Assembly (NCBI GenBank): GCA_963701855.1
Contig: CAVPBK010000009.1
Span: 448,001-512,000, forward strand
Length of the DNA: 64,000 nt
Direction: 5' to 3'
DNA from: Nitrospirota bacterium
GTDB lineage: Bacteria > Nitrospirota > Nitrospiria > Nitrospirales > Nitrospiraceae
This document shows positions 59,705 through 61,110 of the stretch, one piece after another. The notes below the pieces were generated by a model. It was not told where the DNA came from, searched no databases, and saw nothing but the letters and a program-made list of their open reading frames with translations. A program made the translations under genes and the position numbers. Numbering within the stretch: the stretch's first letter is position 1; each line of letters starts with the position of its first letter.

Positions 59705-59891
59705 GGATCTTCTAACGGCGAGGAGCGTGCCTCTCCGCTGAAGGGCCGCACCGACGTCCGATGGTGCCACGCCATTGACCTGCCCCCAAGTGTTAGGCCA
59801 CCGGTTCAGTTCGCTTACGCCGGGAATGGTCGGCTGGAATCCTGGCTCCAGATCCGACCTGGTTTAAAGGGGGCAGCAACTGTCTTGGTTG

Positions 59892-60839
59892 TCAAGCACA
59901 CTGAACCAGTTCTGTGCGCCATGGGGTCCGATGTTTCAGCATCGCATTCAGAATGATCAGCAGCTTCCGCATACAAGCGGTCAGTCCCACCTTCTTCGTC
60001 TTGCCCGCGGCGCGCAGGCGTTGGTAGAACGCACGTATGACAGGATTGAAGCGCGCCGCCACGAGCGCGGCCATATAGAGCACGGCCCGGATCTGCGCCC
60101 GGCCGCCCCAGACCGTGCGCTTCCCGCGCAATGTCCCGCTGTCACGATTCAGTGGGGCCACCCCCACCAGCGCGGCAATCTGTTTGCCGGGCAACGTGCC
60201 AAGTTCCGGCAGCGTCGCCAGCAGCGTCGTCGTCACCACGGGCCCCACCCCGGGTGCGCTCCGCAAGAGCGCCTCCTTCTCACGCCACACGGGACTCTCC
60301 CGAATCGCCTGGGCCAAGCCGCGGTCCGTGTGGCTCAATTCCCGCTCGAGCCAGGCAATGTGGGTGCGCAGGCTCTTGCGTACCGGCTTGCCAGCCATCC
60401 CCAGGCGGTTCTTCTCCGCCGTCAGCATCTCGACGAGTTGCCGGCGACGCGTCAGGATCGCCGCCAGTGCCTGGGTCTGCTCATCCGGCAGGGGTCGCGG
60501 CTCCGGTCGCATGACCTCGGCGAAGTGCGCCAACGTCTGGGCGTCCAACGCATCGGTTTTGGCGAGCCGCCCGGTGGCTTTGGCGAAGTCGCGCACCTGT
60601 CGCGGATTGACCACGACGACCGGCACCCCGGCGGCGGCCAATACCGCCGTGAGCGGACTCTCCACCCCGCCGGTGGCTTCCAACACCACCAGCGTGGGGT
60701 GCACGGCGTTCAGACGTTCGAGCACCTGAGCAAATCCGGCCTCGTTGTTGGGAGCGGAGAACTGCCCCTCCGGTCGGAGGGCGAGGTCCAACTGCGCCTT
60801 GGAGATATCAATACCGACAAAGACCTGAGTACTCGTCAT
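59892..60839 (-). CDS. IS110 DEDD recombinase/transposase
   Basis: VGID, LEATG and KTDALDA (DEDD), plus DSG serine loop; AAGGAGG RBS; 315 aa uninterrupted. Confidence 0.95.
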
Positions 60840-60851
60840 CACGTCCTCCTT

Positions 60852-61012
60852 GGTGGCCCGGCCTTGCATGATACGGGCTCAATGGCCCACGCAACTGTTC
60901 GGGCTCGTTCCGTAGAAGGGCATGACGACCCTCGCTGCCCCACGGTCTTTGAAGACCTCGGTCACGTCGGTCTATCATGCCCGGGTTGATGATAAGCTGT
61001 ATCATTGTCGCC
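60852..61012 (-). ncRNA. IS110 bridge RNA (ends approximate)
   Basis: 5' hairpin; target-binding loop with guides ACGTGACC and GGGGCAG closed by gggcatga/tcatgccc; donor-binding loop with guides ACAGTTGC and ATGCAAG. Confidence 0.85.
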
Positions 61013-61110
61013 TTGGGCGCAAGATACAAGGTCACTTTCCCAATGGACTCCGCTTGCGCGCGTTTCAGGTCCACGAACTGCGTAAGAGGGCCACTCATAC
61101 CAGTTGAGTG

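Follow-up and report, generated by a model that had tools for sequence, protein, structure and literature searches.

The bridge RNAs of IS110 elements were described in 2024, with predictions that cover thousands of orthologues and 85.7% of the entries that ISfinder has for the IS110 group, according to the sections of the original report concerned with them (PMC11208160). The same sections characterize the group by a long non-coding left end placed before the gene, a short right end and the lack of terminal inverted repeats, and they depict the RNA of IS621 as a 5′ stem-loop and then two stem-loops with internal loops, the first loop being variable and the second conserved (PMC11208160). In the structural part of the companion paper, the composite active site of IS621 consists of D11, E60, D102, D105 and S241-G242, and the handshake bases are those that follow the right guides and are complementary to position 7 of the partner DNA (PMC11208158). 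Here we have analyzed a stretch of 64,000 nt (hereafter the window) from a Nitrospirota bacterium (assembly GCA_963701855.1, contig CAVPBK010000009.1, positions 448,001 to 512,000), which contains on its minus strand a 1152-bp insertion sequence of the IS110 group (window 61028-59877) with CT on either side. Judging from its sequence, this element is very probably complete and would work like IS621, with a bridge RNA able to read both its own ends and a landing site at the tip of IS3-family inverted repeats.

The features of the IS110 group are present in this element, i.e., the layout of the ends, the CT core on both sides, the RNA fold, the guide matches, the handshake bases and the promoter sequence at the junction of the ends. 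The non-coding left end spans 189 nt (61028-60840); at the right end, only 15 nt (59891-59877) follow the stop codon. Read on the minus strand, the left junction is AAGTGAC-CT-TGTAT (61037-61024) and the right junction is ACAGTTG-CT-GCCCC (59883-59870). The source genome (G000; 4.3 Mb in 15 contigs, to which the C-numbers used below refer) has four full-length copies, located in the window and at C6:360712, C13:97322-98471 and C12:13249. These copies are 99.74-100% identical over 1152-1154 bp, and none of the six differing alignment columns falls in the guides. Their identity ends at identical bases, beyond which the left flanks read AAGTGAC, CAGTGAC, CTATGAC or GAGTGAC and then CT, and the right side reads CT-GCCCCCT in all four. 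A CT at both sides and a common target are found in the four copies, and a fifth site was found in a metagenome run (X1). A preliminary description of this locus, made from the sequence alone, had staked its interpretation on copies elsewhere sitting at the same kind of site, and all four copies indeed lie at xxxTGAC-CT / CT-GCCCCCT. The full 315-aa protein is encoded by three copies, which differ by at most three substitutions in 1152 bp and have identical guides. Decayed remains of the element are also present: a left-end fragment of 87 nt at C9:211610-211696, placed after CTATGAC-CT, an 18-nt remnant at C11:175468, placed after AAGTGAC-CT, and a further decayed fragment at C6:714227-714407. 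Two in-genome relatives, at C5:333474 and C6:714407, match their own flanks only partially and both look decayed.

The recombinase ORF is preceded by a Shine-Dalgarno sequence (AGGAGG, 60850-60845) and its product matches the Pfam families DEDD_Tnp_IS110 (PF01548; 1.3e-28) and Transposase_20 (PF02371; 2.8e-19). A phmmer search against the sequences of the PDB retrieved the ISCro4 transposase (9t56; 1.7e-43) and the IS621 transposase (8wt6; 4.7e-40). The residues D11, E54, D96, D99 and S234-G235 align with D11, E60, D102, D105 and S241-G242 of IS621, once the offset of the 8wt6 chain numbering (paper numbering + 2) is applied. The two Pfam domains and the aligned catalytic residues agree with the earlier claim of an intact DEDD recombinase, and with the RuvC-like DEDD domain and the Tnp domain bearing a catalytic serine that mark the IS110 group.

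The non-coding left end folds as expected for a bridge RNA. The single-sequence fold of the 198 nt from 61037 to 60840 (-78.7 kcal/mol, z = -3.41, none of 200 shuffles being as good) takes the shape of a 5′ hairpin followed by two stem-loops with internal loops. To this fold can be added the evidence of the relatives of the recombinase, which were collected from one-genome-per-species contigs (604 pattern matches, 563 of them encoding a relative). The best 80 of these 563 relatives were kept (56-86% amino acid identity, mostly from Nitrospira/Nitrospirota assemblies), and their 76 upstream regions of at least 180 nt yielded 69 distinct left ends longer than 140 nt, 54 of which were aligned with the window (55 sequences). 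Ten left ends were left out because their aligned start was not CTTGTAT (L022, L026, L048, L062, L063, L072, L075, L082, L087, and L092) and five as short, long or near-duplicate (L032, L058, L077, L081, and L083). RNAalifold found in this alignment 28 pairs, 15 of them with compensatory changes. The 25 pairs that make up the two-stem-loop architecture are paired in 96.4% of the cells, vs. 33.9-52.5% when the partners are slid by 1-3 columns, and their covariation score is 0.430, vs. 0.057-0.110 with slid partners; compensatory changes were observed in 15 of the 25. In the first two helices, 12 of the 16 pairs have changed on both sides. Shuffles of the 25-pair structure never reached the observed values on four of five measures (0/500), and the fifth, the pairs changed on both sides, was reached by 9 of 500. 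Moreover, a sequence profile of the 54 relatives, from which the window had been left out, matched the latter once, at 61030-60853 of the minus strand (E = 1.9e-40), and recovered seven more left ends or fragments in the rest of the source genome. The two-loop fold put forward in the preliminary description is thus seen in the single-sequence fold and supported by structural covariation, and its assignment of the locus to the IS621 type of bridge-RNA architecture agrees with the copies, with this covariation and with that between guides and flanks presented below.

Two side observations concern this RNA. At element position 25 (window 61004), within the 5′ hairpin, the copies differ by T or G, and the G makes a U-U mismatch a U-G pair; the G form (C in plus-strand letters) is also found in a collapsed contig of run X1. 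On the other hand, no Rfam family was matched by the bridge-RNA strand, and on the opposite strand a full-length, sub-threshold resemblance to sX15 (RF02234) was found at window 60836-60994 (+), with 30.1 bits for a cut-off of 55 and E = 0.014. sX15 is a Xanthomonas small RNA that, according to its source paper, lies on a plasmid, is matched by a complementary partner, asX7, and has 10 chromosomal homologues in Stenotrophomonas maltophilia. Since sX15 resembles the strand opposite to the bridge RNA and has such a complementary partner, the sX15/asX7 pair may be an unrecognized bridge RNA with its antisense, derived from the left end of an IS110-type element.

The four guide strings proposed in the preliminary description are all present on the minus strand, i.e., ACGTGACC (60967-60960), GGGGCAG (60941-60935), ACAGTTGC (60898-60891), and ATGCAAG (60869-60863). 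As in IS621, the variability is confined to the target loop: the variable positions of the alignment coincide exactly with both sides of the first internal loop, and the second loop is nearly invariant, with GAACAGTTGC on one side and A-U...GCAAG on the other (A..U and CAAG invariant or nearly so in the 55 sequences). The right target guide pairs seven bases, core included. For the right donor guide, the contiguous ATGCAAG is possible in the window, as had been proposed, but the form conserved in the 55 sequences is split, with an A-U, a variable spacer and GCAAG. In this split form, G60867 faces the T of TGTAT. Concerning the handshake bases, C60934 pairs with donor position 7 (G) and G60862 with target position 7 (C).

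The right ends of the relatives were located as their own left-donor-guide 7-mer followed by CT, 900-1600 nt downstream, and this word was found in 54 of the 55 sequences (50 exact, three with one mismatch, and one with two). Variant left donor guides have matching ends at the expected distance: ACAGTCG (five cases), ACGGTTG (two), ACAGCTG (two), ACAATTG, and ACAGGTG. The independent test of the guides is the flank beyond the right end, which could be performed for 52 of the 55 loci, those that have a CT core and 8 nt or more of flank. The right target guide matched its own right flank at five of five positions in 32 loci, at four in 14, at three in four, at two in one and at none in one, with a mean of 4.42 of 5 vs. 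1.62 between loci that have different guides. The 32 distinct right target guides summed 138 of 160 matches, and none of 10,000 shuffles reached this value (mean 51.6, maximum 76). For the left target guide, the longest word common to the 9-nt guide and the flank plus core averaged 5.42 with the own flank and 3.09 with the others; the 42 distinct guides summed 229 vs. 135.9, again with 0 of 10,000 shuffles reaching it. The handshake positions behave in the same way. The base after the right target guide is a C opposite to the G of donor position 7 in 50 of 54 relatives, and that which follows the right donor guide complements target position 7 in 48 of 55 (0/10,000 shuffles); in the 13 loci where target position 7 is not C, six bases are complementary, four form G-T pairs and three are mismatched. 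These results show that, across the relatives, target loops vary in step with the flanks, and donor loops with the ends of the element.

Once the ends are joined, the element would also carry its own promoter. It is only through the joining of the ends at CT that a TTGACA overlapping the stop codon would come to lie 17 nt from TATCTT (61026-61021); in the integrated copy, the place of the -35 box reads AGTCCA. Among the 50 relatives with an exact right end, a hexamer matching TTGACA in at least five of six positions occurs at that spacing in 34 (exact in 23), and 30 of the 50 have TATCTT as the -10 hexamer, another 11 having TATCTC. We conclude that a putative sigma-70-like promoter is rebuilt at the circle junction and is conserved among the relatives. 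A promoter in the circle is described in the relevant passages of both IS621 papers (PMC11208160, PMC11208158) and of the seekRNA paper (PMC11187229).

The site chosen by the element has a clear identity. From sequence comparison, the natural target GTGAC-CT-GCCCC is identified as the outermost tip of the terminal inverted repeats of IS3-family elements (TGACCTGCCCCC), a tip which we take to be that of the so-called IS407 group. All four copies sit at such a tip with a constant polarity, TGAC always lying to the left and the remainder of the repeat to the right. In the source genome, two 1.2-kb elements with rve matches (C9:171210-172423 and C12:29075-30254) are bounded by TGACCGGCCCCCC and GGGGGGCCGGTCA. 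The uninterrupted target unit is found at C6:1288997 (ATGAC-CT-GCCCCC), C5:917 (GTGAC-CA-GCCCCC), and C12:10796 (GTGAC-CG-GCCCCCC), and the C5 unit is followed by a Shine-Dalgarno sequence and a 92-aa ORF with the domain HTH_Tnp_1 (2.6e-15), which is the first-gene domain of IS3-type elements. In the window, the unit split by the insertion has a perfect inverted 12-nt tip, GGGGGCAGGTCA, at 59787-59776, 87 nt downstream; its left half is homologous to the ends that precede an HTH_Tnp_1 gene, and in its right half 42 of 50 positions agree with another end. The fourth copy (C12) has as its neighbour an ordinary gene for a thiamine-pyrophosphate enzyme, and the solo stretch in which it lies is similar, over some 25 nt, to the right repeat of the 1.2-kb elements.

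This arrangement could also be read as a single, longer insertion sequence in which the shared flank is part of the element and not a separate target, since three of the four copies have in common about 50 nt beyond the right CT. This flank is only about 80-94% alike, however, vs. 99.7-100% for the element itself, and it is missing from the fourth copy and from the X1 site. The uninterrupted units at C6:1288997, C5:917, and C12:10796 also argue against it, as does the right end of the relatives, which falls at the same place (left donor followed by CT), and we thus give this explanation hardly any credence. As the target is the tip of an IS3 repeat, the element described here would land in other insertion sequences and in their miniature remnants, cutting six bases off their end.

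The mobility of the element was examined in metagenome runs. At least 0.81 of the sampled words of a 1331-nt stretch were found in 14 soil or rhizosphere DNA runs from at least nine studies, and contigs were compared for runs X1, X4, X15, and X16, the last two being RNA libraries. The X1 contigs show several left flanks that diverge at 61034-61036 and match copies of the source genome and the C9 fragment, suggesting that X1 is maybe the source sample or a close population, and not an independent one. One X1 contig runs on from 61035 by 30 letters whose reverse complement is the exact flank of C12:6283, a site that in the source assembly is empty and has a perfect GTGACCTGCCCCC. This site, occupied in X1 and empty in the assembly, is therefore polymorphic, besides being predicted by the guides, and its occupation points to a recent movement of the element. 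An X4 contig (59780-60818) carries the window's own insertion with 0 mismatches. In X16, a contig holds an approximately 95%-identical relative with a 368-nt internal deletion, adjoining CTGCCCCC and then a right-repeat-type sequence; being a contig from an RNA library, it cannot show transcription. The polymorphic site and the near-identical copies give indirect support to the proposal of the preliminary description that the element is probably active; the circle junction was found neither in the assembly nor in the contigs.

Several observations weigh against the idea of an active element whose RNA reads the target and the ends. Some of them concern the guides. Seven left junctions are known, i.e., those of the four copies, the X1 contig (TTGTGAC), the C9 fragment (CTATGAC), and the C11 remnant (AAGTGAC). 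Five of them have G at position -5 and the other two have A; the C of the guide at position -6 is matched in none of the seven, and its A at position -7 in two of the seven. Hence, the left pairing that has support is GUGAC plus the first core base only, and all guides being present and tracking flanks or ends, it is the extension of the left target guide beyond this point, included in the preliminary description, that the insertion sites do not support. Even the G at -5 is not strictly required, as one insertion and one fragment occur at TATGAC. The second core base of the left target guide is G here vs. U in IS621, and in this clade the first core C is followed by G or A in the left target guides and by varying bases in the left donor guides, the two core bases never being CU. 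In addition, since the right ends of the relatives were located with the left-donor-guide 7-mer, the agreement of the left donor is partly by construction. Such weaknesses fit an alternative in which the protein reads the DNA directly and the left-end fold is a leader that regulates translation, the matches being incidental: the left guide, with its 5 + 1 bases, is short and has mismatches at -6 and -7, and the donor loop hardly varies among the relatives, so that it offers little covariation of its own. But the variable loop positions follow their own flanks on both sides (0/10,000 shuffles), the rare donor-guide variants accompany matching end variants, and the handshake positions covary with target position 7; the guide scheme has moreover been shown experimentally and structurally for IS621, as stated in the corresponding parts of both reports (PMC11208160, PMC11208158). 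We consider a direct reading by the protein very unlikely.

Other observations concern the activity and the target. The circle-junction 14-mer is absent from the source assembly and the circle joint does not appear in the contigs of X1, X4, X15, and X16, although contigs drop rare forms and this absence says little. The C13 copy is frameshifted by two 1-nt insertions, with a stop at codon 130. A 237-nt contig of X15 covers 60825-61034 plus 27 nt of flank and, like that of X16, cannot show transcription in spite of its origin. At two of the five insertion sites (L004 and C12:6283), the resemblance to recognizable IS3 ends is limited to the tip or to about 25 nt, and three perfect target 12-mers of the source genome are unoccupied. 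A true IS110 member that is already extinct, with copies that are fossils and guide matches that record past activity, would account for the missing circle, for the frameshift in one of four copies, for the decayed fragments on C9, C11, and C6 and for the three perfect sites that are still empty. Against this, three copies that lie at most three substitutions apart have an intact ORF and the same guides, no catalytic residue has been lost, and C12:6283 is empty in the assembly and occupied in the X1 contig; we therefore regard extinction as improbable, albeit the least improbable of the alternatives considered.

If the element works as proposed, it would excise as a circle, by analogy with IS621. 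The joined ends would place TTGACA at 17 nt from TATCTT, and this junction promoter would transcribe the bridge RNA and the recombinase. Recombinase dimers assembled on the two loops would then bring the circle junction ACAGTTG-CT-TGTAT to the target GTGAC-CT-GCCCC, the strands would be exchanged at CT, and the single bases after the right guides (C and G) would pair with the partner DNA after the exchange. The coordinates of all these features are collected in Table 1.

Table 1. Features of the insertion sequence, its bridge RNA and its landing site (window coordinates)
Feature	Position	Strand	Basis
IS110-group insertion sequence, TGTAT...ACAGTTG, without terminal inverted repeats	59877..61028	-	Four copies with exactly these ends
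Left target (LT) AAGTGAC, ending with the tip (TGAC) of the host IS3-type inverted repeat	61031..61037	-	Flanks of copies
CT core, left copy	61029..61030	-	Junction sequence and copies
Left donor (LD) ACAGTTG, final bases of the element	59877..59883	-	Junction sequence and copies
CT core, right copy	59875..59876	-	Junction sequence and copies
Right target (RT) GCCCC	59870..59874	-	CT-GCCCCCT in all four copies
Recombinase gene, 315 aa; catalytic D11, E54, D96, D99, S234-G235	59892..60839	-	Pfam and alignment to IS621 and ISCro4
TTGACA in the right end, overlapping the stop codon; putative -35 box in joined ends only	59890..59895	-	Spacing and relatives
5′ hairpin of the bridge RNA, containing the -10-like TATCTT 61026-61021	60998..61028	-	Single-sequence fold; TATCTT in 30/50 relatives
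Target-binding stem-loop: outer stem, internal loop, inner hairpin	60918..60982	-	Helices 1 and 2 paired 96.7% and 98.6%
Left target guide ACGUGACC (= ACGTGACC), same sense as LT plus first core base	60960..60967	-	Sequence and flank covariation
Right target guide GGGGCAG, complementary to CT-GCCCC and followed by the handshake base C 60934	60935..60941	-	Flank covariation
Donor-binding stem-loop	60856..60904	-	Helices 3 and 4 paired 95.3% and 94.9%
Left donor guide ACAGUUGC (= ACAGTTGC), equal to LD plus first core base	60891..60898	-	Equals right end 59883-59876
Right donor guide: A60872-U60871, three spacer bases, GCAAG 60867-60863; G 60862 is the handshake base	60863..60872	-	Alignment
Rest of host unit: miniature IS3-family derivative of about 105 bp, TGAC-CT-GCCCCC ... 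GGGGGCAGGTCA, split by the insertion	59776..59874	-	Inverted tip and homology

The element has relatives in other genomes. Of 120 other genomes of the same family, 24 contain a relative at E <= 1e-50, the best one being 82% identical, so that this isoform occurs only in the source genome among those searched. An unpublished genome (G006) contributes one row to this comparison and one to that of the relatives' guides, and none of the conclusions depends on it. None of the 54 + 26 left ends of relatives that were examined has the same pair of target guides; the new target specificity claimed in the preliminary description is hence maintained in this narrow sense, its IS3-tip nature having gone unnoticed there. 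The relative L103 (genome G072, 72% nucleotide identity) has the same left target guide and sits at GAGAC-CT-TCCCCC, and its right target guide differs at the first target base and at one base beyond the five paired positions. In the source genome, another rve-bearing element has TGACCTTCCCCC as its tip; GTGACCTTCCCC is present in three places, all of them unoccupied and adjacent to or not far from an rve match; and GTGACCTTCCCCCAATTCCGTGGACACC, found at C5:8807, C6:1570336, and C7:264, is the end of another rve-bearing element that is one base off the target (the first RT base), all three sites being unoccupied.

These data allow us to formulate a broader proposal, to be taken as tentative and, in our opinion, rather doubtful: this element and at least some of its close kin may be specialized hunters of insertion sequence ends, whose target loops would track the outermost repeat bases of the IS3 family and would be re-aimed between tip variants by single guide changes, the elements behaving as hyperparasites, disabling the IS3 ends and finding in them multi-copy safe harbours. 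The evidence for the re-aiming by single changes is one relative, L103. We also considered the targeting of insertion sequence ends as a general trait of the clade, for which no consistent pattern appeared: none of the 124 flanking ORFs of at least 85 aa from the 16 closest relatives matches a transposase family at E <= 1e-5, and of 46 loci, 3 had an inverted copy of the 12-nt target (at most two mismatches) in the right flank and 8 in the left flank; miniature or solo ends would escape both flank tests. As a separate observation, several relatives from different genomes (L016-L018, L113, and L123) share the target AAGTAGC-CT-GTCCCCTTTT, a widespread repeated site.

With regard to the neighbourhood in the window, about 75 nt separate the host unit from a phospholipase A1 gene (PF02253), of which it lies downstream. 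This gene, located upstream of the insertion, is split into 61114-61524 and 61673-62170 (-), covering profile positions 3-66 and 155-257, and looks broken or frameshifted, with a gap between its two ORFs. A DDE_Tnp_1 transposase fragment (62477-62938, minus strand; 5.9e-13) is found 1.4 kb from the element, and the 49 rve matches detected genome-wide indicate that the source genome is rich in insertion sequences. On the other side, two adjacent, paralogous small ORFs (59000-59272 and 59324-59701, plus strand) have lipoprotein-like N-termini and no Pfam match.

With this element, the bridge recombinases programmed by nature gain one more member, whose 12-bp target is documented and whose target guides are 7 nt long on the right and short on the left; it is a possible further orthologue for engineering. 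It also offers a clean natural case of one insertion sequence that aims its guide RNA at the end of another family, which bears on how mobile elements find harmless landing sites and how guide loops get re-aimed in nature. The known mechanism is unchanged by this finding, and given that the bridge RNAs of the family are predicted by the thousand, as reported in the survey sections of PMC11208160, one more natural member is of modest weight.

Targeting of the ends of other mobile elements has a precedent in a different group. IS4321 and IS5075 reportedly target the inverted repeats of the Tn21 family, as the title of the work of Partridge and Hall in 2003 is said to state. These elements belong to the IS1111 group and have subterminal inverted repeats and a guide RNA downstream of the gene, in contrast to the 15-nt right end and the upstream RNA observed here. 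Membership of the IS1111 group was considered and discarded for our element, in which neither subterminal inverted repeats of 7-17 bp nor an RNA in a long right end is found.

The closest described system in terms of mechanism is IS621, an IS110-group element from E. coli. Both share the domains, the five catalytic residues, the 5′ hairpin followed by the target- and donor-binding stem-loops, the CT core, the left guides in the sense of the top strand and the right guides complementary to it, the handshake base after each right guide and the promoter (predicted in our case) at the circle junction. They also share an 8-nt left donor guide and a split right donor guide with a non-canonical G:T pair, as pictured in part of the structural paper (PMC11208158). 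The two differ in that the proteins are distant relatives (phmmer 4.7e-40) and in their targets, GTGAC-CT-GCCCC in IS3-type tips here vs. ATCAGGC-CT-AC in IS621. The right target guide has 7 nt here and 4 in IS621, and longer right target guides were noted in some orthologues (passages of PMC11208160). The left target guide effectively pairs six bases here and nine in IS621, where it covers both core bases, and the halves of the right donor guide are three bases apart here and two in IS621. The best match with a solved structure is the ISCro4 transposase (PDB 9t56; 1.7e-43 over residues 6-307), a comparison that concerns the protein alone.

With respect to the target, a full-text search for IS110 elements in IS3-family repeats gave no report of an IS110-group element aimed at the tip of an IS3 repeat, a negative result with a thin basis. 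The lists of predicted orthologues and targets of PMC11208160 may already include this element or its target. The nearest case is ISEc21, an IS110-type element with an upstream non-coding RNA (seekRNA) and, according to the part of the work that deals with it, a natural target within IS3-family elements (PMC11187229). That target is described in the same part as a conserved stretch inside the IS3-family transposase genes (PMC11187229), whereas here it is the outer tip of the repeat. The fresh point of this element is its natural target; otherwise, it represents a known kind of system.

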